Part shown: positions 1-12,827 of the stretch, piece by piece
How the letters are laid out: the number at the start of each line of letters is the position of its first letter
Position numbering within the stretch: the first letter of the stretch is position 1
From: a virus
Lineage: Duplodnaviria > Heunggongvirae > Uroviricota > Caudoviricetes
Reading direction: 5' to 3' (one strand)
DNA: 12,827 nucleotides
Virus record (IMG/VR): IMGVR_UViG_2671180864_000011
Notes under the pieces: model-generated
Databases searched by the model: none
The model's input: only the letters and a program-made list of their open reading frames with translations
Told to the model about the DNA's origin: nothing
Position numbers and translations under genes: made by a program

Positions 1-170
1 TGAACATAAAACACTATCAATAAGTTGGAGTCATTACCAAACGGTTGAAATGTATGCCGCTACTTACGGGTCCTGTAATCCTCTGAATAAACCAGAGGGA
101 AAAGATGATTTCGACAAAATTTACCGCTTCTTGGAGGACCGCTATATCAAAAGCTTAGAGGACGCAGGGA

Positions 171-548
171 TCAAATCCCCAGTGAAGTCACCATTGTCCT
201 GAGAACTTGCAGAACGTCATGATCATAACTTCCATCCAAACCGCGACGGCGAATTGCTTCTCGTATTACCGGAAGCAGTTCGCTGGAAATCTCGGTGCAT
301 ATTTCACCTGATAATACGCTTGGCTCAAGTGAGAATATTGGTGAACTTACGGTCTTGGTCTCGACAGTTTCAGAGTCAGTGCCAACATTATAAAGCTCAA
401 CGAAAGCGGTCTTGATTTTCCGGGCCAGATCTTTTGCTGGCTCGCTTGCAATATCTTTCCCGATTTCTCGCAGCACAGAATGCAATGTATGAGCTGCTGT
501 TTTCTGTACATCAGACGGTAAATCTTTAAATTCCATCGTCAGCCTCAT
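171..548 (-). CDS. hypothetical protein (125 aa), distal gene of a leftward early operon
   Basis: Uninterrupted 125-codon ORF. Its first ATG overlaps the stop of the upstream ORF (TGATG); a second in-frame ATG 12 nt downstream is preceded by GAGG. No family motif recognisable by eye. Confidence 0.5.
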   Translation of the reverse strand: MRLTMEFKDLPSDVQKTAAHTLHSVLREIGKDIASEPAKDLARKIKTAFVELYNVGTDSETVETKTVSSPIFSLEPSVLSGEICTEISSELLPVIREAIRRRGLDGSYDHDVLQVLRTMVTSLGI

Positions 549-754
549 CAGTCAGTGTTTCTGGCTAACCAGCAACGCGCGCCAGATTCGGTTTTAAACG
601 TTTTGCTTTTGGTATACGTCATGGCGGTAAACGTTCCATCCTGGTTAGGGAACACGCCGCACACCAGAGATTCGTTGTTGCCAAGATCGATAGTATCCAT
701 GCTGACCTCATTTCCCCTTAACGCCGGGGTGGCGGAACAAAAAACCTGCTGCAT
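548..754 (-). CDS. hypothetical small protein (68 aa from the ATG at 754; 50 aa if started at the ATG at 700)
   Basis: Minus-strand ORF downstream of the operator pair at 882..922. The internal ATG (plus 698..700) has a GAGG Shine-Dalgarno 5 nt upstream; the ATG at 754 has none. Start is uncertain. Confidence 0.4.
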   Translation of the reverse strand: MQQVFCSATPALRGNEVSMDTIDLGNNESLVCGVFPNQDGTFTAMTYTKSKTFKTESGARCWLARNTD

Positions 755-881
755 AGTTAAAGATTGAACCCTGCCGTCATGTTCTTACGCCTCGGGCTGG
801 CTACTTAACCCCTGACCACTGTCTGGTAACTCGAAGTATTGCCCTGCATTCTGTGGGGCGGGGTGGGTTGACGCCTGAAAC

Positions 882-922
882 AATAGCATCATTATTTTTT
901 TGATGTAAATAGCATCGCTATT
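882..922. promoter_or_regulatory. OL-like operator pair: two 15-bp dyads at 882..896 (AATAGCATCATTATT) and 908..922 (AATAGCATCGCTATT)
   Basis: Same motif AATAG-N5-CTATT as the two dyads between the divergent repressor and cro-like genes, with the same 25-26 bp centre-to-centre spacing. Sits between the parE terminator and the leftward genes. Confidence 0.55.
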
Positions 923-937
923 GTTTTTTGTTGGGGC

Positions 938-962
938 AAGAAAAAACCACCCTAAGGTGGTT
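938..962 (-). terminator. Rho-independent terminator candidate ending the repressor-antitoxin-toxin operon
   Basis: Perfect 7-bp inverted repeat AACCACC (945..951) / GGTGGTT (956..962) with a 4-nt loop, followed on the minus strand by TTTTCTT. Lies 17 bp past the parE stop. Confidence 0.5.
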
Positions 963-978
963 CTGTCGGCGGGAATAA

Positions 979-1269
979 TTAACTGTTTTTGCCTGGATAC
1001 TGTCTTCGAGAATGCACAATATTTACTACTTCTATGCTTGATGCTGTTACTCGGTAAAGGATGATGTAGTTAGGATGAGTTACAATTTCACGAAGACCAA
1101 GAACTCGCTCGCTTGGAGGATACAGGTAAGGATGCTCTGTGAGCGGCAAAACGGATGTTTCAATTCGAATTTTCATTCTGCGTGCTGCCGCGGGATTTTC
1201 TTTAGCTATGTAGGCTACGATCTGGCGCAAATCATCACGAGCAGATGGTAGCCATAAAACGGGTAACAT
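979..1269 (-). CDS. parE: ParE/RelE-family type II toxin (ParE2-like)
   Basis: 96-aa ORF with typical ParE/RelE length and sequence character (N-terminal LPVLWLPSARDDLRQIVAYIAKENPAAA, C-terminal IVNIVHSRRQYP). Its start overlaps the stop of the upstream small ORF (shared position 1269), as in toxin-antitoxin pairs. Confidence 0.85.
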   Translation of the reverse strand: MLPVLWLPSARDDLRQIVAYIAKENPAAARRMKIRIETSVLPLTEHPYLYPPSERVLGLREIVTHPNYIILYRVTASSIEVVNIVHSRRQYPGKNS

Positions 1270-1463
1270 TATTCACCTCTGTGAGTTGCAGCAGCAATTT
1301 GGGCAATAATTTGTTCCATTTCCGCCATTACCTCATCATGCGGAATCGCCGGGCGGGGATCCGCGAGGCTTGCTGCTACTTTGGCCCGCAGCCATTCGTT
1401 GTAACTATTTTCTTGCTCAACTGTCTCAAATTCTGAAACCATTGGGGAAAGGACTGTACTCAT
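1269..1463 (-). CDS. small antitoxin partner of the ParE toxin (PaaA2-like)
   Basis: 64-codon ORF immediately upstream of and overlapping parE, with an AGGAGA Shine-Dalgarno before its ATG. Acidic, helix-prone small protein. Size and position match the antitoxin of the three-component paaR2-paaA2-parE2 loci described in E. coli O157 prophages. Confidence 0.7.
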   Translation of the reverse strand: MSTVLSPMVSEFETVEQENSYNEWLRAKVAASLADPRPAIPHDEVMAEMEQIIAQIAAATHRGE

Positions 1464-1482
1464 TTTACATATCTCCTCTGAT

Positions 1483-1983
1483 TTAGGCGCGACGGCCTTT
1501 TTGTGCAGCTAACCACCGCGCAACCGTACGATCCATTGATTCTTTTTTATCTTTCATCTCCTGAAGCATGTGTTCTTGATCTTCTTTCGGAAAAGCTCTG
1601 AACGTATGGATTAAATCTCGTTCCATCGGCTCTACGGCAAACGGTAGTTCATCCTCTGTTTGTTCTGTGTCTGCTGGTAATGCGACTATGTTATCTTGCT
1701 GTGGTTCTCGACAATACATCCTTGCAATTTGCAGCAAATCTACCATGTCTGGCCTGATTGACTCAGGGGGAACTTTCAGTAAGCCAGCAAACTTTAGAAC
1801 AGCCTCAAGGTTTAGTGGGGTTTGACCATTTAGGTAGTGACTTACCGCCCCTTGTGTTGAAAACCCCATAATTTCCGCCGCACGTTCCTGAGTCAATCCC
1901 AACTGAGATTTCTTTGCCATCCAGATTTCTTTCAGTCTTCTGGCGGCGTTGAGGTCGGTGTCTGACAATGATTTTCTTTTCAT
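1483..1983 (-). CDS. XRE-family HTH transcriptional repressor (CI-like prophage repressor / PaaR2-like); the ORF also extends to a GTG at 2013
   Basis: HTH segment LTQERAAEIMGFSTQGAVSHYLNGQ. C-terminal ~80 aa are acidic with no S24 peptidase-like region. Divergent from a cro-like gene with dyad operators between them. First gene of the operon containing the antitoxin and parE. Confidence 0.8.
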   Translation of the reverse strand: MKRKSLSDTDLNAARRLKEIWMAKKSQLGLTQERAAEIMGFSTQGAVSHYLNGQTPLNLEAVLKFAGLLKVPPESIRPDMVDLLQIARMYCREPQQDNIVALPADTEQTEDELPFAVEPMERDLIHTFRAFPKEDQEHMLQEMKDKKESMDRTVARWLAAQKGRRA

Positions 1984-2018
1984 ACATCCAATTCTAATAA
2001 GATTGCTAATCACTTTGA

Positions 2019-2058
2019 AATAGCATCACTATTTACTTTTAAAAATAACAGTGCTATT
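2019..2058. promoter_or_regulatory. OR-like operator pair: 15-bp dyads at 2019..2033 (AATAGCATCACTATT) and 2044..2058 (AATAACAGTGCTATT), overlapping divergent promoters
   Basis: Inverted half-sites AATAG/CTATT; centres 25 bp apart. A -10-like TATTAA at 2055..2060 lies 35 bp upstream of the cro-like ATG; TTGAAA at 2015..2020 is a possible -35. Confidence 0.55.
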
Positions 2059-2094
2059 AATTATGCATTGGTAACACATCACATAGGGCGGATT

Positions 2095-2358
2095 ATGAAT
2101 CTTGGAGAATATTTGCATCATTTTCATATAACCCAGAGTTCATTTGCTGAGATTGTTGGCGCATCCCAAGGGATGGTCAGCCACGTTATAACGGGGCGTG
2201 CAAAACTTACAGGAGAAAAAATATTACGTTGGTGTGAAGCAACGGGATGGGTGGTGACCCCACATGAGATTGACAGTAAAACCTACCCCAACCCAACTGA
2301 CGGCTTGCCTGCTGAGTTTCAGGCTAACACACAACCATCGGCGGGGGTTGATTCATGA
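2095..2358 (+). CDS. Cro/YdaS-like HTH regulator (ORF opens at a TTG at 2068; ATG at 2095 preferred)
   Basis: Short protein with HTH segment FHITQSSFAEIVGASQGMVSHVITGRAKLTGEKILRW. Divergent from the repressor. Its stop overlaps the next gene's start (ATGA at 2355..2358). Confidence 0.75.
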   Translation: MNLGEYLHHFHITQSSFAEIVGASQGMVSHVITGRAKLTGEKILRWCEATGWVVTPHEIDSKTYPNPTDGLPAEFQANTQPSAGVDS

Positions 2359-2780
2359 AAATCAAGCATGAACACATCCGCATGGCGATGAAAGCCTGGG
2401 CGCATCCGGACGGTGAAAAAGTTCCGGCAGCTGAAATAACCAGGGTTTATTTCGAACTGGGAATGACGTTTCCGGTTCTGCATAACGACAGCAAGCACAA
2501 CACGCTTTATCTCAACACCCAAAAGATTTTCCGTTGGCTGGATAAAGACACCCCTGACGCTGTTGAAAAAATTCAGGCGTTGTTACCTGCGATCGAAAGG
2601 GCAATGCCACCTCCGCTGGTGGCTCGAATGCGCAGCCACAGTTCAGCTTATTTTCGGGAACTGGTGGAGACGCATGAACGACTGGTGAGAGACGCTGATG
2701 ATTTTGTCGCAGTGGCAATCGCCGGTTTCAATCAGATGAACCGTGGTGGCCCGGCAGGAAATGCTGTGGCAGTACATTGA
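2355..2780 (+). CDS. YdaT-like protein (proposed CII-type regulator; historically annotated as a toxin)
   Basis: 141-aa ORF translationally coupled to the cro/YdaS-like gene, in the position and size of ydaT in Rac-type prophages. Family assignment is by gene order and recollection, not a search. Confidence 0.55.
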   Translation: MKIKHEHIRMAMKAWAHPDGEKVPAAEITRVYFELGMTFPVLHNDSKHNTLYLNTQKIFRWLDKDTPDAVEKIQALLPAIERAMPPPLVARMRSHSSAYFRELVETHERLVRDADDFVAVAIAGFNQMNRGGPAGNAVAVH

Positions 2781-2851
2781 CTGACAATAGCCATATCGAA
2801 TCGCTCCCGGCAACTCGTGAGTAAAAAGATTCGGTATCAGAAGAGGTGAGT

Positions 2852-3916
2852 ATGGCTAACGCCTGGCTCAGATTATGGCATGACATGCCAAATGACCCTA
2901 AGTGGCGAACAATTGCCAGGGTGTCAGGGCAGCCAATTGCAACAGTGATGGCAGTGTATATCCACCTCCTGGTGAGCGCGTCACGAAATGTCACGCGAGG
3001 TCACATTGATGTCACGACAGAAGATTTGGCAAGTGCGCTCGACGTGACAGAAGAGGTAATTGATTCAATTTTGCAGACGATGCAGGGGCGGGTACTTGAT
3101 GGTGATTTAATCACTGGATGGGAAAAACGCCAGGTGCTTAAAGAGGACAACGGCAATATTTCGCAAACCGCAAAATCTCCTGCAGAGCGCAAGAGGGCGC
3201 AGCGAGAGAGGGAAAGAAAGCGGGAACAAAATGGCGATTGTCACGGCGCGTCACGAAATGTCACGCACATGTCACGACGAGTCACGACAGATACAGATAA
3301 AGATACAGATAAAGAAGATCAAAACACTATGGTCCATGGCGTAAAAAACGCCACGAACCAGGCAGGGGATGTTCAGACCGTCAATCCTGGTCAGCCAGCA
3401 GGCTCGACACCGGAAGCCGATTCAGCGTATGCGCTGAAAGCCGATTCGGGCGCTGTGCAGCAGGTGATGACCGCAAGGCCGGAGCAATCACTCCAACTGC
3501 AGCAGCCTGAAGCCGATTCCGCCATTCAGCGGGAAGCCGATCGGGTAGCCCCGGAAAACACCGGGCAGCCTGTGGGACGAGTGGATTATCCGGATGTGTT
3601 CGAACAGGTCTGGCGGGAATACCCGTTGCGTGCCGGGGCAAACCCGAAGAAATCCGCATTCAGTGCCTGGAAGGCCAGATTGCGCGAGGGGGTGCCACCA
3701 GAGACCATGCTGGATGGTGTGAGGCGTTACGCGAGATACCTGGCGGCGACCGGGAAAGCGGGAACGGAATTTGTTCAGCGAGCGACGACGTTTTTTGGGC
3801 CGGACCGGAATTTTGAAAACCCCTGGTTGCTCCCGGTAAGCGGCACGAACAACCAGCGTTGTGTGAATCATATTTCTGAACCGGATACCGAAATTCCGCC
3901 GGGATTCAGGGGGTGA
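2852..3916 (+). CDS. phage replication initiator / replisome organiser (lambda O analogue, YdaU-like)
   Basis: AAGAGG Shine-Dalgarno 5 nt before the ATG at 2852 (ORF opens at a GTG at 2846). Sits directly upstream of the DnaC-like gene. Contains two clusters of GTCACG direct repeats and low-complexity charged stretches (ERKRAQRERERKRE, TDTDKDTDKED). Confidence 0.65.
   Translation: MANAWLRLWHDMPNDPKWRTIARVSGQPIATVMAVYIHLLVSASRNVTRGHIDVTTEDLASALDVTEEVIDSILQTMQGRVLDGDLITGWEKRQVLKEDNGNISQTAKSPAERKRAQRERERKREQNGDCHGASRNVTHMSRRVTTDTDKDTDKEDQNTMVHGVKNATNQAGDVQTVNPGQPAGSTPEADSAYALKADSGAVQQVMTARPEQSLQLQQPEADSAIQREADRVAPENTGQPVGRVDYPDVFEQVWREYPLRAGANPKKSAFSAWKARLREGVPPETMLDGVRRYARYLAATGKAGTEFVQRATTFFGPDRNFENPWLLPVSGTNNQRCVNHISEPDTEIPPGFRG
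2976..3019. repeat. iteron-like cluster A: GTCAC(G/A) at 2980, 2990, 3000 and 3011 (10-11 bp phasing)
   Basis: Direct hexamer repeats at helical-turn spacing inside the initiator gene. The 21-mer GCGCGTCACGAAATGTCACGC at 2976..2996 recurs exactly at 3246..3266. Confidence 0.55.
3240..3312. repeat. iteron-like cluster B: five GTCACG at 3240, 3250, 3260, 3271 and 3281, then a 12-bp tandem AGATACAGATAA x2 (3289..3312)
   Basis: Five phased hexamers followed by an A/T-richer tandem repeat; layout resembles the intragenic origin of lambdoid phages. Confidence 0.55.
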
Positions 3917-3922
3917 TGTGGC

Positions 3923-4669
3923 ATGAAAAACATTGCGGCAGCCGGGGTTCTTGAACGTATTCACAGACTTGCACCACAGGGGGCGGTTCCACCGTACCGG
4001 ACGGTGGAGGAGTGGCGGGAATGGCAACTTGCTGAAGGACGAAAACGCAGCGAGGAGATTAACCGCCAGAATCGCCAGTTGCGGGTGGAAAAAATCCTGA
4101 ATCGTTCGGGCATCCAGCCTCTGCACAGCAAATGCTCGTTTGCGAATTATCAGGTGCAGAACGACGGGCAAAAATACGCGCTGAGCCAGGCCAAATCCAT
4201 AGCTGACGAACTGATGACCGGGTGCACGAATTTTGTGTTCAGCGGTAAAACCGGCACCGGGAAAAATCACCTTGCAGCGGCGATGGGTAACCGGCTGATG
4301 GCGAAGGGGCGCAGCGTGATTATCGTCACCGAGTCTGATGTCATGAGCGTGTTGCATGACAGCTACGACAACGGCAAATCCGGTGAAAAATTTTTACAGG
4401 AGCTTTGCGGGGTTGATTTGCTGGTCCTGGATGAAATAGGCATTCAGCGGGAGACGAAAAACGAGCAGGTGGTATTGCACCAGATAATTGATCGCCGGAC
4501 AGCATCACTGTGCAGTGTCGGGATGTTAACAAACCTGAATCATGCCGCAATGAGCACGCTTCTTGGTGAGAGGATTATGGACCGCATGACCATGAACGGT
4601 TGTCGGTGGGTGACGTTTAACTGGGATAGCTGGCGTTCAAATGTCAGCTTTCCGGGAGTTGTGAAGTAA
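3923..4669 (+). CDS. DnaC-like AAA+ helicase-loader ATPase (phage P-analogue, YdaV-like)
   Basis: Walker A FSGKTGTGKNHLAAAMG and Walker B LLVLDEIG. Start lies 7 nt after the initiator stop, preceded by a GGGGGTGA Shine-Dalgarno. Confidence 0.85.
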   Translation: MKNIAAAGVLERIHRLAPQGAVPPYRTVEEWREWQLAEGRKRSEEINRQNRQLRVEKILNRSGIQPLHSKCSFANYQVQNDGQKYALSQAKSIADELMTGCTNFVFSGKTGTGKNHLAAAMGNRLMAKGRSVIIVTESDVMSVLHDSYDNGKSGEKFLQELCGVDLLVLDEIGIQRETKNEQVVLHQIIDRRTASLCSVGMLTNLNHAAMSTLLGERIMDRMTMNGCRWVTFNWDSWRSNVSFPGVVK

Positions 4670-4690
4670 TTTTTGTTGGAGGATGTTTTA

Positions 4691-5416
4691 ATGGAAACTG
4701 TATTTGACGCACTGAAAGCACTGAAAAGAGCCTCTTCACATGTGGTGGCGTCCCGCCTTGGAATCAGCCGTGAAGATGCGGTCAACGAACTGTGGAAACT
4801 GAAGCGCCGTGGTGAAGCGGATAACAAGGGTTCGATGTGGTGGCTGATTCAGGCTGGTGAAAGTGAACCAGTGTCACCGGTACCGAAAGTGACAGCGCAA
4901 ATGCTGACTGAGGCGATTGAACAACATGGCCCACAAACGGCGGATGAGCTGGCACTGATGTTCGGGATTACCTCCCGCCGGGCGAATTCATCGCTGGCCA
5001 TGGCAATCAGCAAAGGGCGTCTGATTCGCGTGAATCAGGGCGGTAAATTTCGGTACTGCATACCGGGCGCTGATTTACCGGCAGAGCCGAAAGCCGCATC
5101 CATAGCGGAAACGGATGGTAAAGTCTTTCCTCAGCCAGCAGGTGTTGCGTTACCGGTACAGGAAGCTGCAACACAGGAAGAAATTAAAACAGAAACTGTG
5201 GCGGACATTGTGCAGTCGTTGCCATCGTTCACCGAAACGCAAGCGGATGACCTGGTTTTACCATCGCTGCATATGGCAAACCGCGAACTGCGTCGGGCGA
5301 AAAGTCATGTCCAGAAGTGGGAGCGTGTCTGCGCCGCGTTGCGGGAGCTGAACAAGCACCGGGATATTGTTCGACAGATTGTCGATTCCTCCGGTCGTAT
5401 TGTGTCGGAAAAGTGA
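4691..5416 (+). CDS. hypothetical protein (241 aa) with possible N-terminal winged-helix-like region
   Basis: ATG at 4691 preceded by GGAGGA (the track ORF opens at a TTG at 4673). N-terminal segment [27 protein letters not shown]. No catalytic motif recognised. Confidence 0.6.
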
Positions 5417-5431
5417 TTGCCGGGGGCGCTT

Positions 5432-5854
5432 ATGGCAAAAGTATTTACACAGGAAGAGCGGGAAAAAATTAAGGGGCAGGTTGTTGAACTCGTACGCCAG
5501 AGTGGGCGCGAGACGTTACGACAACTGGAAGCTAAAACCGGGGCGACAAGATATTTAATAAGCGTTCTCGCCAGAGAGCTGGTTGCCAGTGGGGATGTAT
5601 ACAACTCTGGCTACGGGTTATTCCCGTCTGAACAGGCTCGTAAGGACTGGCAAAACGCCCGCAAAAAACTCTCGAGGGCAAAGCTGAAGAAACCATCTGT
5701 GGTTGATCCGGACCTTATCTGGTCATTACCAGACGGAGAAATACGCCGCTACGACAGACATCAGAACATAATCTGTCGCGAGTGCCGGAAGAGTGAAGTT
5801 ATGCAGCGTGTACCGGCTTTCTATCAGGGTGATTTTCAGGAGGCGGTACTGTGA
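5432..5854 (+). CDS. hypothetical protein (140 aa), possible winged-helix N-terminus and C-terminal CxxC
   Basis: ATG at 5432 (track ORF opens at a TTG at 5417). A diverged, 5'-truncated second copy at 8744..9133 differs mostly at synonymous sites, which argues the reading frame is real and under selection. Confidence 0.6.
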   Translation: MAKVFTQEEREKIKGQVVELVRQSGRETLRQLEAKTGATRYLISVLARELVASGDVYNSGYGLFPSEQARKDWQNARKKLSRAKLKKPSVVDPDLIWSLPDGEIRRYDRHQNIICRECRKSEVMQRVPAFYQGDFQEAVL

Positions 5855-7470
5855 GTGAAATTAGCTATCAGGCTTCAATTACCGCTGGCATTCGCATCAA
5901 AGGAGAGGAGCATGGAAATAAAACCAGAAGATGAGTTAAGCAATATTGTTTTATTTCCGGTAAAAGAGGATAACCCTCGTAATCAGGTTAATTTTCTTTA
6001 TGAGCCATCGGAAAGACCATATTGCCATCACGCTTCTGTCCGGGTTGACGAAAAAGAGCGTCAGGTCCGCTGTAAAATTTGCGGTGCAGTTGTGGAGCCA
6101 TTTGACTGGATGCTCTCTGTGGCGAAAAGAGAAACCAGACTGGCAGATGATGTAAGGCTCTTGCGCCAGGAGGAGCGGGAAAGGCGAAAAAATATAGAAA
6201 AGCTAATCCAGATTGAGCGTAATGCGAAAGCGCGGATACGCAGGGTGACAAAATATAGCCCCGAATAATCAAGGTTATTTCTGGAAGTCAAGTCGTGAGT
6301 GATGAGGACTAACAAATACGGTGAACTCGATAAAGAGATTCAGGACGAACTGGAGGCCAGGAATGATTGACAAATCACCAAGTGAGTTCAGCTACAAAGA
6401 TTTATTGTCATAACGGGTTATGAGATCGACTTGGTGCGTGATATTCTTCGGGCCAGTTTGCTATGCGCCACCATGAGATGTTATGGCCCGCATGTTTGAT
6501 ACATTAGGATTTTACATTATGAATGTGCAACATTTTGATTTTTTTACAGATAATGAGTTTTCTAATCTGGAAAGATATCAAACTTGTAAAGCCATGGCCA
6601 AAGGTTATGCGGGCAATTACAAAACCGGGCAGTCAAGGTTGATGCATGCCCGCTCATACTGCTTCAGCATCGTAGCTGCATATTGGGATACCCTTGCAAA
6701 AAAGCAAAAAAGCAGCATTAAAATGAGGGCAGTACCGCACACTGTTTACATAGAAGACATTCCATGTGATGCACGCGAGCTCGCTGAACGAACAGGTGAG
6801 CTTATTGCTCAATTTCCGGCGGAGGACGCTGGATATCTGATTGGGTCAATTTATACGGTAATGCTGCCATCCGCTTACCGTTCGGAATTGGGGGCTTACT
6901 ATACCCCCCCACCTTTGGTAGCGCGTCTCTTGGACCTGGCTGAAAAGTCTGGTGTTGATTTTTCTCATGCATCGGTTATTGATCCTGCGTGTGGTGGCGG
7001 TGCATTTTTGGCACCAGTAGCCATTCGAATGTTAAAAAAAGACAAGGGGTCTTCCCCTGAATGGATGTTGAGGAGAATCAGTCGTCGTTTAAAGGGGATA
7101 GAAATCGATCCATTTGCGGCTTGGATGAGTTTGGTATTGCTCGAATCTGTACTAATGCCACTATGTGTAAAGGTAAAACGTAGATTGCCTGAAGATACAA
7201 TTATTGTTGCTGATGCGCTTCAGCAAGATAAATTTTCTGGTTATGATCTTGTGGTAGGGAATCCGCCTTACGGACGTGTCACTCTCGATATTAAAACGAG
7301 AGAAAAATATTCTCGTTCGTTATTTGGTCATGCAAATCTATATGGATTGTTCACCGACTTAGCTGTTCGCATGGTTAAAGAGAAAACAGGAGTTATTGCA
7401 TTTCTTACGCCAACTTCTTTTCTTGGTGGGCAGTATTTCACCGCGCTGCGAACCCTTTTGACCGAAAAAA
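5465..7470. repeat. copy 1 of a ~2.0-kb direct repeat (140-aa gene, zinc-ribbon gene, leader, methyltransferase 5' half)
   Basis: Collinear with 8744..10749 at a constant offset of 3279 bp. Encoded proteins are identical from about 5710 onward; the first ~245 bp carry multiple substitutions. Confidence 0.85.
5912..6268 (+). CDS. hypothetical zinc-ribbon-like protein with basic coiled-coil tail (118 aa), copy 1
   Basis: Strong Shine-Dalgarno AAAGGAGAGGAG before the ATG at 5912 (track ORF opens at a GTG at 5855). C-H-H...C-K-I-C spacing suggests a metal-binding ribbon; C-terminus RLLRQEERERRKNIEKLIQIERNAKARIRR. An identical copy lies at 9191..9547. Confidence 0.6.
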   Translation: MEIKPEDELSNIVLFPVKEDNPRNQVNFLYEPSERPYCHHASVRVDEKERQVRCKICGAVVEPFDWMLSVAKRETRLADDVRLLRQEERERRKNIEKLIQIERNAKARIRRVTKYSPE

Positions 7471-7526
7471 ATTGGCTAATGAGGTGTACTGGCAATAGCG
7501 GACACTACCATTTGTTCTTTTTTTAA
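6483..7526 (+). pseudogene. 3'-truncated copy of the N6-adenine DNA methyltransferase gene
   Basis: First 329 codons are identical to the intact gene at 9762..11594. Homology ends at 7470, followed by 9 unrelated bp and the IS left end at 7480. The ORF then reads through unrelated sequence to a stop at 7526. Motifs X, I and IV are retained; the C-terminal domain is lost. Confidence 0.8.
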
Positions 7527-8341
7527 GCAGCCATCTGATGATATTTTTCCCTGAAGGCTGCCGGGGAGATATTCCCCAGACGAGAGTGACGACGCTGACG
7601 ATTGTAGAAAATCTCAATGTATTCCCGTATTACTGAGATGGCTTCATCCCGGTTATTAAAACGATAGTGGCTCAGGCTCTCATTTTTCAGCGTTCCCCAG
7701 AAGCTTTCCATCGGAGCGTTGTCGTAACAGTTACCTTTACGCGACATTGATGTTTTCAGACCAGACTGCTCCTGTATGACCCGGTAATCGTATGCGCAGT
7801 ACTGTGAACCTCGATCAGAGTGGTGGATTAGCCCGGCAGGTGGGCGCTGGCTCCTGAGCGCCATAAACAGGGCTTTACCTGTCAGCTCTTTTGTCATGCG
7901 CTCTCCCATGGCGTAGCCGACAATTTCGCACGTATAAACATCTTTGATGCCAGCGAGGTACAACCATCCCTCCTGTGTGGCAACATACGTCAGGTCCGCC
8001 ACCCAGACCTGATTTGGTGCTGTAGGAGCGAACGTCTGGTTCAGCAGATTTGGCGCAACTGGCAGATTGTGGTTCGAGTTCGTAGTCGCTCTGAACTTGC
8101 GTTTCTGCTTACAGCGTAGCCTTAGCTCCTTACGAAGACGTGCCAGTCGGTCACGACCAACGATGATGCCATTCTCTGCCAGCTCCGTCTGGAGCCGCCG
8201 GGTTCCATATGTTTCGCGAGTGCGGATATGTGCCACCTTAATCTCCAGTTTTAGCCGCTCATCACTTTGTTTTCTGTCTGAGGGTTCATGCTGTACCCAG
8301 TTGTAATAACCGCTCCTGGATACACCAAATACCTGACACAT
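7523..8341 (-). CDS. IS3-family transposase OrfB (DDE catalytic domain), normally made as an OrfAB fusion by -1 frameshifting
   Basis: 272-aa ORF in the -1 frame relative to orfA. Integrase-type catalytic core typical of IS3 OrfB (VWVADLTY ... HHSDRGSQY ... NAPMESFWGTLK). Confidence 0.85.
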   Translation of the reverse strand: MCQVFGVSRSGYYNWVQHEPSDRKQSDERLKLEIKVAHIRTRETYGTRRLQTELAENGIIVGRDRLARLRKELRLRCKQKRKFRATTNSNHNLPVAPNLLNQTFAPTAPNQVWVADLTYVATQEGWLYLAGIKDVYTCEIVGYAMGERMTKELTGKALFMALRSQRPPAGLIHHSDRGSQYCAYDYRVIQEQSGLKTSMSRKGNCYDNAPMESFWGTLKNESLSHYRFNNRDEAISVIREYIEIFYNRQRRHSRLGNISPAAFREKYHQMAA

Positions 8342-8376
8342 CGCTTCAATGGGAAATTGTTGTCGCCATTGTTCGA

Positions 8377-8679
8377 TTAACGCGTATTTTTCAGCGACTC
8401 CTGTGCAAAATACGCTGTTGCTTTTTTTAATATATCTCGCTCAAGGCGAGCTTCATTTAACGCCTTACGCAGTTGCAGAATTTCAGATTCCAGTTCAGCC
8501 ACCGTGCGGGAACCAGGAGTACCGAGCCCTTTTCTGGCGGCGGTAACCCATTGTCCTAAAGTGCCTTCAGGAAGAGATAATCGGGAAGCGCCTTCACTGA
8601 TCGAAAGTTGATTTTCAGGAACCGTTCTGACAGCTTCGGCTTTGAACTCTTTAGAGTAACGTTGGGTTTTTCTGCTCAT
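8377..8679 (-). CDS. IS3-family transposase OrfA (HTH DNA-binding subunit)
   Basis: 100-aa ORF with a leucine-zipper-like C-terminus (ELESEILQLRKALNEARLERDILKKATAYFAQ) ending just after the slippery run. Confidence 0.85.
   Translation of the reverse strand: MSRKTQRYSKEFKAEAVRTVPENQLSISEGASRLSLPEGTLGQWVTAARKGLGTPGSRTVAELESEILQLRKALNEARLERDILKKATAYFAQESLKNTR
8422..8428 (-). other. programmed -1 ribosomal frameshift slippery run (A AAA AAA G on the minus strand) for OrfAB
   Basis: Seven consecutive T on the plus strand inside the orfA codons for L-K-K-A, in the orfA/orfB overlap. Confidence 0.6.
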
Positions 8680-8743
8680 TATTAGCTCCTTCTGATGCCA
8701 TTCTATTTCAGGAAGGAGTGTCCGTTAAACTCAGGCTACCTCA

Positions 8744-9133
8744 AAAATTAAAGGGCAGGTTGTTGAACTTGTACGTCTGAGCGGTCGCGAGACGTTGCGG
8801 CAACTGGAAGCCAAGACAGGTGCGACAAGATATCTGATGAGTGTTCTCGCCAGAGAGCTGGTTGCCAGTGGCGATGTATACAACTCTGGTTACGGGTTAT
8901 TCCCGTCTGAACAGGCGCGTAAGGACTGGCAAAACGCCCGCAAAAAACTCTCAAGGGCAAATCTGAAGAAACCATCTGTGGTTGATCCTGACCTTATCTG
9001 GTCATTACCAGACGGAGAAATACGCCGCTACGACAGACATCAGAACATAATCTGTCGCGAGTGCCGGAAGAGTGAAGTTATGCAGCGTGTACCGGCTTTC
9101 TATCAGGGTGATTTTCAGGAGGCGGTACTGTGA
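8744..9133 (+). pseudogene. 5'-truncated, diverged second copy of the 140-aa hypothetical gene
   Basis: Homology to 5465..5854 begins immediately after the IS right end and lacks the first 11 codons. About 20 nucleotide differences but only 3 amino-acid changes (Q to L, I to M, K to N). The track ORF 8795..9133 begins at an internal Met. Confidence 0.7.
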
Positions 9134-9190
9134 GTGAAATTAGCTATCAGGCTTCAATTACCGCTGGCATTCGCATCAAAGGAGAGGAGC

Positions 9191-9547
9191 ATGGAAATAA
9201 AACCAGAAGATGAGTTAAGCAATATTGTTTTATTTCCGGTAAAAGAGGATAACCCTCGTAATCAGGTTAATTTTCTTTATGAGCCATCGGAAAGACCATA
9301 TTGCCATCACGCTTCTGTCCGGGTTGACGAAAAAGAGCGTCAGGTCCGCTGTAAAATTTGCGGTGCAGTTGTGGAGCCATTTGACTGGATGCTCTCTGTG
9401 GCGAAAAGAGAAACCAGACTGGCAGATGATGTAAGGCTCTTGCGCCAGGAGGAGCGGGAAAGGCGAAAAAATATAGAAAAGCTAATCCAGATTGAGCGTA
9501 ATGCGAAAGCGCGGATACGCAGGGTGACAAAATATAGCCCCGAATAA
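9191..9547 (+). CDS. hypothetical zinc-ribbon-like protein, copy 2 (protein identical to copy 1)
   Basis: Same Shine-Dalgarno and ATG context as copy 1; translation identical. Confidence 0.6.
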   Translation: MEIKPEDELSNIVLFPVKEDNPRNQVNFLYEPSERPYCHHASVRVDEKERQVRCKICGAVVEPFDWMLSVAKRETRLADDVRLLRQEERERRKNIEKLIQIERNAKARIRRVTKYSPE

Positions 9548-9761
9548 TCAAGGTTATTTCTGGAAGTCAAGTCGTGAGTGATGAGGACTAACAAATACGG
9601 TGAACTCGATAAAGAGATTCAGGACGAACTGGAGGCCAGGAATGATTGACAAATCACCAAGTGAGTTCAGCTACAAAGATTTATTGTCATAACGGGTTAT
9701 GAGATCGACTTGGTGCGTGATATTCTTCGGGCCAGTTTGCTATGCGCCACCATGAGATGTT

Positions 9762-11594
9762 ATGGCCCGCATGTTTGATACATTAGGATTTTACATTATG
9801 AATGTGCAACATTTTGATTTTTTTACAGATAATGAGTTTTCTAATCTGGAAAGATATCAAACTTGTAAAGCCATGGCCAAAGGTTATGCGGGCAATTACA
9901 AAACCGGGCAGTCAAGGTTGATGCATGCCCGCTCATACTGCTTCAGCATCGTAGCTGCATATTGGGATACCCTTGCAAAAAAGCAAAAAAGCAGCATTAA
10001 AATGAGGGCAGTACCGCACACTGTTTACATAGAAGACATTCCATGTGATGCACGCGAGCTCGCTGAACGAACAGGTGAGCTTATTGCTCAATTTCCGGCG
10101 GAGGACGCTGGATATCTGATTGGGTCAATTTATACGGTAATGCTGCCATCCGCTTACCGTTCGGAATTGGGGGCTTACTATACCCCCCCACCTTTGGTAG
10201 CGCGTCTCTTGGACCTGGCTGAAAAGTCTGGTGTTGATTTTTCTCATGCATCGGTTATTGATCCTGCGTGTGGTGGCGGTGCATTTTTGGCACCAGTAGC
10301 CATTCGAATGTTAAAAAAAGACAAGGGGTCTTCCCCTGAATGGATGTTGAGGAGAATCAGTCGTCGTTTAAAGGGGATAGAAATCGATCCATTTGCGGCT
10401 TGGATGAGTTTGGTATTGCTCGAATCTGTACTAATGCCACTATGTGTAAAGGTAAAACGTAGATTGCCTGAAGATACAATTATTGTTGCTGATGCGCTTC
10501 AGCAAGATAAATTTTCTGGTTATGATCTTGTGGTAGGGAATCCGCCTTACGGACGTGTCACTCTCGATATTAAAACGAGAGAAAAATATTCTCGTTCGTT
10601 ATTTGGTCATGCAAATCTATATGGATTGTTCACCGACTTAGCTGTTCGCATGGTTAAAGAGAAAACAGGAGTTATTGCATTTCTTACGCCAACTTCTTTT
10701 CTTGGTGGGCAGTATTTCACCGCGCTGCGAACCCTTTTGACCGAAAAAACTACTCCGTATGCCCTTGATTTCGTCACTGACAGGGATGGGGTCTTTGACG
10801 ATGTTCTCCAGGAAACAATGTTGACAGCATTCAAGGCGGGAGAACATAAAGTTCGGGCCCAGGTATCCTCACTTGTCCCTAAGGGGTTGAACAAAGCAAA
10901 AATTGAGAAAATAGGTAATGTTGATATAGAAAAAGGTGGAGCAACGTGGCTTTTGCCACGCGTTAAAGATGATGCCTGTTTTCTTAATGTATTAAAACAG
11001 ATGTCTACGCGTTTAGCTGATCTGGGATACTCAGTCTCTACAGGTCAGTTAGTCTGGAATCGATTTAAGTCGCAGTTGCGTACGACGAAAGGAAAAAATA
11101 GCTACCCATTAGTCTGGGCGGAATCAATAACTTCAGCTGGTTTTCGTTTTAGTGCAGACAGAAAAAATCATGTTCCCTATATCGATATAACCCCACAACA
11201 GGGTTTCCTTGTGACAAAATCTGAATGTGTGCTTGTTCAGCGGACAACATCGAAGGAACAGGACAGAAGGATTTTAGCGGCAATTTTACCTCAGGGATTT
11301 ATAGATGAAACTGGTGGCGTAGTAGTTGAAAACCATATTAATATTGTATATTCAAACGGATTGTTCTCTGCGGTTCGCCCTGATGTTATTGATATGCTAC
11401 TTAATTCGCATGTTGTCGATCGGGCGTTCAGGTGTATAAGCGGAAGTGTTGCTGTTTCGGCCTATGAATTGAATTCAATCCCGTTGCCTTCTCTGGAGCA
11501 GGTGATGGAGATTCAATCGTTAATTGATGCTGGCGTCCACAGACGGATTATTGAGAGAACTATCGCTGGTTTCTATGGAGTGATGATTGCATGA
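9762..11594 (+). CDS. gamma-class N6-adenine DNA methyltransferase (type II RM-type; possible true start at ATG 9798)
   Basis: Motif order X (GAYYTPPPLVARLL), I (DPACGGGAFL), IV (VVGNPPYGR), followed by a ~340-aa C-terminal region consistent with a target-recognition domain. AGGA lies 9 nt before the ATG at 9798; the ATG at 9762 has no Shine-Dalgarno. Confidence 0.85.
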   Translation: MARMFDTLGFYIMNVQHFDFFTDNEFSNLERYQTCKAMAKGYAGNYKTGQSRLMHARSYCFSIVAAYWDTLAKKQKSSIKMRAVPHTVYIEDIPCDARELAERTGELIAQFPAEDAGYLIGSIYTVMLPSAYRSELGAYYTPPPLVARLLDLAEKSGVDFSHASVIDPACGGGAFLAPVAIRMLKKDKGSSPEWMLRRISRRLKGIEIDPFAAWMSLVLLESVLMPLCVKVKRRLPEDTIIVADALQQDKFSGYDLVVGNPPYGRVTLDIKTREKYSRSLFGHANLYGLFTDLAVRMVKEKTGVIAFLTPTSFLGGQYFTALRTLLTEKTTPYALDFVTDRDGVFDDVLQETMLTAFKAGEHKVRAQVSSLVPKGLNKAKIEKIGNVDIEKGGATWLLPRVKDDACFLNVLKQMSTRLADLGYSVSTGQLVWNRFKSQLRTTKGKNSYPLVWAESITSAGFRFSADRKNHVPYIDITPQQGFLVTKSECVLVQRTTSKEQDRRILAAILPQGFIDETGGVVVENHINIVYSNGLFSAVRPDVIDMLLNSHVVDRAFRCISGSVAVSAYELNSIPLPSLEQVMEIQSLIDAGVHRRIIERTIAGFYGVMIA

Positions 11595-12673
11595 ATCTGC
11601 CTGTTGTTCCCCCATTGAATGTTATCCGGGAAAGATTACAATTAATTTTCCCTGAAGGGACTGAGAATCGTGGATATTTAATTCGGGAAATAGCTGCAAA
11701 AACAATTTTTGTCATGTTTTATGCTGGTGCGGTTGAGGGGCTGGGGCGATGGATAAGGCCCAGCCAGGTTGTAAGTATGGGAGATTCGCAGGCTGCTCTT
11801 ACTGATGATGCGTCCAGAGAAAGCTGGGTAAAGATGACTTTCTCTAAACAAAAGATAAGGCCTGCTGATGCATGGTATGCGGAAAATACGCGTGAGCCAA
11901 TACGTGATGAAACTATAAAAAATGGCCTAATACCTTGCAATGCAATTGTTGAGCGTAAAGGTATACCCACCACATCCTCTCGTCCTCGTTACAGTTTGAA
12001 TCGCTCTTTTGCAGCACTCTTTGATGCCGGGCTTGAAGGAGATTCGCTGCTGAGTGCAATAAGTTCCTGGCAAGAAAATCATTTGAACAAAGCCGCTCTT
12101 GCTAGGTTGCGTTTATTGAAATCAGGGGCAGTGATTGCTGCTGATGCCGTAGTCGTCACTTTCCCAAATGGAGAGAAGAGAACTTTAGCTCCGGGCCCGT
12201 CAAGTACAATAGCTAAGGCCGTCATCGAAGTTTTTGCTCCTAATTTTCTTAAGAATCCAACTGTGCTCTGGTTGTCTGAATCCGGGAATAAAGTTGTTGC
12301 TCAGGATGATGTATTGGCAAAAGCATTGGGGCTGAATATTGATGCCTCAAAAGCACTTCCAGATATTATTTTGATTGATTTGGGAGAGGACCGAACGGGT
12401 TCGGACATGCTTGTAGTTTTCACTGAAGTAGTTGCGACAGATGGGCCTATAAACAGGGAACGAAAAGTTACTCTCACTCATTTGGCTATTGACGCTGGGT
12501 TCAGCGAGAAAAATCTTGCATTCCTTACGGCATTTATGGACAGAAGTGCTCTGCCTTTTAAAAAGGCAATACCAGAATTGGCGTGGGGATCTTATGCATG
12601 GTTTGCTTCTGAACCGGAGCACTTAATTGATCTTCGGGATGGTTATCCGGTAAAGATCAGCCAGAGAAAATGA
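11591..12673 (+). CDS. putative restriction endonuclease partner of the methyltransferase (possibly BsuBI/PstI-like); function not proven
   Basis: 360-aa ORF whose ATG overlaps the methyltransferase stop (ATGA at 11591..11594). Same AT-rich composition as the methyltransferase. No unambiguous PD-(D/E)xK motif identified by eye, so the call rests on gene context. Confidence 0.5.
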   Translation: MNLPVVPPLNVIRERLQLIFPEGTENRGYLIREIAAKTIFVMFYAGAVEGLGRWIRPSQVVSMGDSQAALTDDASRESWVKMTFSKQKIRPADAWYAENTREPIRDETIKNGLIPCNAIVERKGIPTTSSRPRYSLNRSFAALFDAGLEGDSLLSAISSWQENHLNKAALARLRLLKSGAVIAADAVVVTFPNGEKRTLAPGPSSTIAKAVIEVFAPNFLKNPTVLWLSESGNKVVAQDDVLAKALGLNIDASKALPDIILIDLGEDRTGSDMLVVFTEVVATDGPINRERKVTLTHLAIDAGFSEKNLAFLTAFMDRSALPFKKAIPELAWGSYAWFASEPEHLIDLRDGYPVKISQRK

Positions 12674-12827
12674 CCAAAGTTTGATATCCGCCACGCCCTG
12701 AAGGATGGGGGTTTTACGGTGCACTGGATAAAAAATCGGTTTCATAGATTTGCCCACCGTGGTATACGCCTGCGATAAAAACTTTATTGTCATCAACGGC
12801 AAAAGCAATAATTGTTCTGTGGCGGGG

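Follow-up and report, generated by a model that had tools for sequence, protein, structure and literature searches.

The DNA analysed in this study is a stretch of 12,827 nucleotides (hereafter, the window) that carries the same block twice, and the locus raises the question of how two copies of one block came to be identical over most of their length and sharply different at one end. An earlier note on this DNA had described roughly 20 differences in the first ~245 bp of the block, mostly in the first ~100 bp, and identical encoded proteins thereafter. In our analysis the window matched itself without a gap at an offset of 3279, from 5464/8743 to 7470/10749, giving copy A (5464-7470, plus strand) and copy B (8743-10749, plus strand). 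The exact alignment of the two copies contained 22 mismatches, all of them within 5473-5710. The sites are 5473, 5491, 5497, 5499, 5503, 5506, 5518, 5521, 5533, 5536 and 5539, followed by 5542, 5555, 5557, 5560, 5563, 5593, 5611, 5638, 5674, 5683 and 5710. The first 100 bp of the block alone account for sixteen of them, and no mismatch was found in the 1760 bp of 5711-7470, so that the description in the note was accurate. Nor are the differences uniform along the 2 kb, the pattern that the note had set against its own reading. With an even spread over the 2007 bases, all 22 differences would be confined to the first 247 with a probability of about 1e-20. Had the remaining 1760 bp diverged at the rate of the tract, about 157 differences would be expected there, against the 0 observed. 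Direct reading of the sequence also showed the heptamer GAAAAAA at the right end of the block (7464-7470, plus strand) and again at its left end (5462-5468), where it could have served as microhomology in the formation of a joint.

The divergent tract, which occupies 5465-5710 in copy A and 8744-8989 in copy B (both plus strand), corresponds to codons 12-93 of a 140-aa DUF977/LygF gene (5432-5854, plus strand). In copy A this gene is intact, and its protein gave a full-length match to Pfam PF06163 (DUF977; E=2.2e-30; residues 1-136 of 140). The exact 140-aa protein was found in 3747 blocks of the collection and is carried by every Shigella sonnei chromosome read; it is the resident S. sonnei allele (allele A). 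In copy B the gene is a 5'-truncated fragment (8744-9133, plus strand) that lacks codons 1-11 and the start codon, and it is probably a pseudogene. When the 22 changes were placed in the frame of the 140-aa gene, 19 were synonymous and three were nonsynonymous (Q23L, I43M and K84N), three being the number of amino-acid changes given in the note. The divergence of the tract by the Nei-Gojobori method was dS=0.42 and dN=0.016, that is, dN/dS=0.039. We read this low ratio as the mark of selection that acted while the two alleles were still separate and functional. The note had proposed purifying selection on both alleles before the joining, and this proposal gains support from the ratio and from the finding, described below, that copy B holds a natural allele.

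Where, then, did the sequence of copy B come from? Over 8744-8995, copy B shows 100% identity to DUF977 as carried by prophages of the ATCC 25922 type in E. coli (ATCC 25922, ST131 and other strains), and 55 complete E. coli records match the copy B tract at at least 99% identity. In a three-way comparison of alleles A, B and ATCC 25922, copy B agreed with ATCC 25922 at 22 of 22 tract sites (allele B) and then with copy A at 16 of 16 sites. The switch from the ATCC 25922 type to the resident type is thus a single one, between 5710 and 5758; it lies in the 47-base interval 5711-5757 (8990-9036 in copy B; plus strand), where all three alleles agree. So clean an order of 38 sites is obtained in only 2 of about 2.2e10 orderings. 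At every one of the 22 sites copy B has the base of a known E. coli allele, so the differences are not sequencing noise. The comparison also shows that the DUF977 fragment of copy B is a chimera of the ATCC 25922-type and the resident alleles, because the informative sites change parent once, and that the imported DNA is limited to 246-293 bp. Judged in this way, the tract is a pre-existing, selection-shaped allele of another prophage lineage and not the product of mutation after the duplication. The search for the carriers of each allele, which the note had suggested, placed B in E. coli of the ATCC 25922/ST131 type and A in S. sonnei. Among phage records, none matched allele B above 94.5% identity, and no Chi site was found near the switch.

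These results bear on two further proposals of the note. It had placed near 5710/8989 either a boundary between source lineages or the end of a gene-conversion tract. The boundary was confirmed, with a foreign ATCC 25922-type tract on one side and the switch within 5711-5757; as to the choice, a foreign origin and homologous exchange were both supported, and neither was singled out. The note had also argued against a recent in-place duplication. This argument is sound for the tract and fails for the remaining 1760 bp, which are identical between the copies and in both are equal to S. sonnei 53G.

The hybrid allele itself was not encountered elsewhere. The best match over 8744-9600 in the E. 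coli complete genomes was 96%, and the possible products of the hybrid, looked up as exact sequences of 112 and 98 aa, were absent from the protein collection. We therefore think that the hybrid probably formed in this lineage. Two other features of DUF977 alleles were observed. In E. coli ATCC 25922 (positions 4968-5390 of locus L013), the donor-type allele is interrupted at codon 111 by an in-frame stop. Copy B crosses over just upstream of this codon, so that the hybrid retains the open 3' end of the resident allele. The DUF977 gene of E. coli FDAARGOS_943 (positions 5854-6276 of locus L001) is linked to the same methyltransferase gene that lies downstream of DUF977 in the window, and it is unrelated to the window allele upstream of about 5576 and 98% identical from there on. 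This is a second natural mosaic boundary within DUF977.

The window as a whole is a segment of a Qin/Rac-like cryptic prophage remnant of S. sonnei. The look-up of the DUF977 protein led to complete S. sonnei chromosomes, in which the dms/ynf genes stand on one side of the locus and ydfI on the other. Positions 1-7470, including all of copy A, are 100% identical to S. sonnei 53G (HE616528), and 8743-12827 is equal to 53G apart from the 22 tract sites. The excess of the window over 53G is 3279 bases, made up in order of nine orphan bases, a complete IS600 and the second copy of the block. The gene order begins with a ParE/PaaA2 toxin-antitoxin pair and with repressor, Cro-like and YdaT-like genes. 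It continues through a replisome organiser, a DnaC-like ATPase and a DUF1627 gene to DUF977 and a small zinc-ribbon-like ORF, and ends with an N6-adenine methyltransferase and a BsuBI/PstI-family endonuclease. The toxin (ParE family, 96 aa) and the antitoxin (PaaA2 type, 64 aa) are encoded at 979-1463 on the minus strand and adjoin the prophage repressor. The zinc-ribbon-like ORF is present at 5855-6268 (plus strand; 137 aa, or 118 aa from the ATG at 5912), and the ORF list shows its second copy at 9134-9547 (plus strand). Comparison with the 53G locus showed that positions 1-38 are the last 38 bases of an IS1, and 12826-12827 are the first two bases of another; the window is probably a whole draft contig bounded by IS1. 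All of the about 31 complete S. sonnei chromosomes have the single-copy form of the locus, and the tandem arrangement was seen in none of them.

The note had reported the divergent tract without its key context, that is, an IS600 at the joint of the duplication, no target-site duplication and nine orphan bases. The IS600 is complete (1264 bp; 7480-8743, minus strand), and its terminal inverted repeats occupy 7480-7506 and 8717-8743. Its OrfA (8377-8679, minus strand) matches HTH_Tnp_1 (E=2e-19) and its OrfB (7523-8341, minus strand) matches the rve integrase core (E=9e-26). In its length, its terminal inverted repeats (imperfect in this family, from TG to CA) and its two ORFs (HTH and DDE/rve) it is a regular IS600 of the IS3 family; RefSeq annotates a programmed frameshift in the same element. 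Its identity to annotated IS600 copies is 99.8-100%. It has the S. sonnei consensus sequence and is identical to three of the 10 copies inspected. Base 8743 is both the last base of the element and the first base of copy B, and the divergent tract begins exactly at this end. At the other end, the nine bases ATTGGCTAA (7471-7479) stand between the methyltransferase breakpoint and the inverted repeat. The flanks of the element are TAA (7477-7479) and AAA (8744-8746), which means that the 3-bp target-site duplication is missing, whereas a control IS600 in E. coli O121 is flanked on each side by CAC, the normal 3-bp duplication. The absence of a target-site duplication is the signature of an exchange between two IS copies, and the flanks indicate that this IS600 is not a simple insertion. 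We looked for a template of ATTGGCTAA in the vicinity and found none. Near-matches to the nine bases beside IS600 in E. coli (at pphA and other sites) were rejected as chance matches. In one S. sonnei genome (5937-8452 of locus L022), an IS600 broken by a second IS600 of opposite orientation was observed.

Of the possible explanations for this structure, we consider it reasonably probable that a recent duplication centred on IS600 took place in an S. sonnei Qin/Rac-like cryptic prophage, and that the tract is what homologous recombination left behind at its joint. The comparisons above show that the tract is foreign and was joined by homologous exchange, and that the remainder of the duplication is recent and local, because its 1760 bp contain no difference and both copies are equal to 53G. 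The process may have been as follows. First, another prophage or incoming DNA would have had its ATCC 25922-type DUF977 gene interrupted by an IS600 at codon 11/12, and recombination would then have carried the IS600-DUF977 junction to the resident locus. The homology arms would have been IS600 and, on the other side, the DUF977 gene or the downstream block, and the exchange would have been resolved 246-293 bp into the gene. One simple route would be a circle of IS600 and adjacent DNA, looped out between two IS600 copies; if it integrated through one crossover within the 1.76 kb of common sequence, exactly the order U-A-9bp-IS600-B-D would result. If two simple IS600 insertions were involved, a partner junction would be expected in which CGGGAAAAA is joined to TGAGGTGTACTGG (the 5' part of DUF977 and the IS600 end, with the target AAA). 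A second would be expected in which CAGGCTACCTCA is followed by TAA, at the other end of the IS600 copy carrying ATTGGCTAA. For comparison with Shigella assemblies, the arrangement can be marked by the sequences ATTGGCTAATGAGGTGTACTGG and CAGGCTACCTCAAAAATTAAAGGGCAGG.

Several points weigh against this explanation. The donor locus, an ATCC 25922-type DUF977 gene cut by IS600, was not found in the collections searched. Among the 10 IS600 sites of one complete S. sonnei genome, none had the nine bases or DUF977 as a flank. A second S. sonnei DUF977 gene (P0074/L014) was considered as the donor and rejected, as it is a different allele with 89% identity. Homology searches for an S. sonnei donor returned only full-length cluster representatives, and the truncated products predicted for a donor had no exact match in the collection. 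Neither of the two junctions, nor any source of the nine bases, was found in the E. coli complete genomes, plasmids, GTDB representatives, IMG/VR or JGI metagenomes. ATTGGCTAA would be unaccounted for unless it is the flank of a second IS600 copy, and the abrupt end of homology at 7470 calls for an illegitimate join or a mosaic donor. Moreover, the structure is unreplicated, as the about 31 complete chromosomes are single-copy and the window comes from an apparent draft contig.

This last point leads to an alternative in which the junctions are real and the tandem order is not. That is, the genome would contain the normal single-copy Qin locus and, elsewhere, a segment of the form IS600-[B tract - 1.76 kb - 9 bp]-IS600, and the assembly would have taken the 1.76-kb repeat and the multi-copy IS600 for a simple loop and passed the contig through them. 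The window runs from the last 38 bases of one IS1 to two bases of the next, as is expected of a short-read contig, and S. sonnei draft contigs for this locus are typically 5-10 kb long (3254 of 3747 blocks), a size to which the window returns when the excess is removed (12827-3279=9548). It spans a consensus IS600 that has many identical copies and an exact repeat of 1760 bp, neither of which can be phased by short read pairs, and none of the complete chromosomes has the tandem form. However, a multi-copy IS600 node normally breaks a short-read contig and is not traversed. Furthermore, all of the junctions (7470 with the nine bases and IS600, IS600 with the B tract, and the B tract with the resident allele) would still be required in the genome, so that the mosaic tract and its explanation would remain. 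We regard an assembly artefact of this kind as unlikely, though it deserves more weight than the other two alternatives. One of these starts from the heptamer GAAAAAA, on which both block ends lie. A tandem duplication by microhomology between 5462-5468 and 7464-7470 would have been followed by the arrival of IS600 and the nine bases, and a separate gene conversion would have overwritten the first ~250 bp of copy B with the ATCC 25922-type DUF977 gene, stopping at the IS as the edge of homology. Deletion of 7471-8743 and one AAAA does give exactly the predicted joint, but three independent events would be necessary, with a target duplication of 4 bp instead of the 3 bp made by IS600 and a 9-base extension outside the IS600 inverted repeat. 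Conversion up to the exact edge of homology would also be unusual, and a match of heptamers is weak evidence because A-runs are common. We think that this course of events is clearly improbable. In the last alternative, the block would have been duplicated in place long ago, the copies would have diverged through mutation, and gene conversion between them would later have made 5711-7470 uniform again. Such a history would likewise produce a sharp boundary between diverged and identical parts. The three-way comparison contradicts it, since the variant bases of copy B are those of an independent E. coli allele at 22 of 22 sites. In addition, a dS of 0.42 beside a dS of 0 implies a great age, yet the copies are otherwise equal to 53G and the duplication is absent from the about 31 complete chromosomes. 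We consider this last origin extremely improbable.

Under the reading that we prefer, the recombination footprint at an IS600-centred joint, the outcome of the event was one intact DUF977 gene, one truncated DUF977 fragment, one truncated methyltransferase and one intact methyltransferase-endonuclease pair. Copy A ends within the methyltransferase gene. The truncated methyltransferase (6483-7526, plus strand) has 347 aa, consisting of 329 native residues and an 18-residue tail that is read from the nine bases and the IS600 end. The NPPY motif is retained and the C-terminal 281 residues are lost, and neither the 347-aa nor the 335-aa form had an exact protein match in the collection. The intact N6-adenine methyltransferase (9762-11594, plus strand; 610 aa) has N6_Mtase/Eco57I domains. 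It is followed by the type II restriction endonuclease of the BsuBI/PstI family (11591-12673, plus strand; BsuBI_PstI_RE, E=9e-45; N-terminal domain, E=1e-30). The region 9762-12673 thus has the adjacent methyltransferase and endonuclease genes of a BsuBI/PstI-family type II restriction-modification (R-M) system, as RefSeq also annotates, with predicted activity. In this family the recognition site is probably CTGCAG. The methyltransferase DNA was present in two of 5426 complete E. coli genomes and in every S. sonnei chromosome read. In some S. sonnei assemblies (loci L008, L027 and L028) the methyltransferase gene is split, at the window equivalents 9818, 10183 and 10313, by single-base deletions in T6, C6 or A6 runs. 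We rejected these as real inactivations, since homopolymer deletions are probably long-read errors, and they have no bearing on whether the R-M system is dispensable.

The presence of a broken methyltransferase copy beside an intact pair suggests one further reading, that the arrangement is a survivor structure imposed by the R-M pair. While the PstI-family endonuclease is active, an IS600 event that broke the sole methyltransferase gene would be lethal, and the survivors would be only those cells whose event also duplicated the block, leaving an intact methyltransferase-endonuclease pair downstream. Selection by the endonuclease for an intact methyltransferase would explain the observed combination. 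We regard this reading as improbable. In R-M-preserving rearrangements, only arrangements that keep methylation should survive, and the Kobayashi laboratory has reportedly worked on the duplication and retention of R-M gene complexes. The disrupted methyltransferase copy beside the intact pair resembles such rearrangements, whereas the R-M pair here is known from sequence and its activity and selective role are putative.

The structure can also be compared with other known systems. Our literature search on IS600 duplications and on DUF977/LygF found nothing specific. Among the closest known systems are IS-mediated rearrangements in Shigella genomes, involving IS600, IS1 and other elements (see Hawkey et al. 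2020, PMC7373316). The present locus resembles such rearrangements in having a complete consensus IS600 at a novel joint, without target-site duplication, in an IS1-flanked prophage remnant. It differs from classical IS-IS unequal crossing-over, in which IS copies stand at both outer borders of the block. Here the DNA to the left of 5464 and to the right of 10749 is uninterrupted, 53G-identical prophage DNA, so the outer ends are IS-free, and a 9-base orphan insert is present. The integration of an IS circle of the Campbell type, in the manner of a translocatable unit, gives the same order of unique - block - IS - block - unique, in which the direct repeats enclose just one IS. In contrast, such integration is inferred here from the order of the parts, and IS600 is an IS3-family element, and the circles that this family itself forms hold only the IS. 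Mosaic alleles of lambdoid/Rac-like prophage genes arise by homologous exchange between prophages, as part of modular phage evolution and of recombination between phages and prophages. The present tract is like them in its sharp switch between pre-existing alleles, its strong purifying selection on both alleles (dN/dS 0.04) and the existence of other internal boundaries in DUF977. It is unlike them in that the exchange goes together with a local duplication and the end of an IS600 and is not a clean allele replacement.

In conclusion, we read this locus as a segmental duplication associated with an IS, at whose joint lies a recombinant prophage allele. Each of these two elements is familiar from Shigella and from lambdoid prophages; the particular case described here is unrecorded. 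We regard it as an ordinary IS-driven rearrangement in an S. sonnei cryptic prophage, and its wider biological significance is modest unless the R-M pair is shown to have selected the structure. If that were true, the locus would be a natural case of an R-M system shaping local rearrangement in the cryptic prophage of a pathogen. As it stands, the locus gives a base-pair view of how IS elements and diverged prophage alleles may jointly remodel a Shigella cryptic prophage, with a foreign patch of less than 300 bp marking the recombination joint of an otherwise identical duplication. Local divergence between duplicates may thus be imported and not accumulated, and in annotation and evolutionary analysis such divergence should therefore not be used for dating a duplication.
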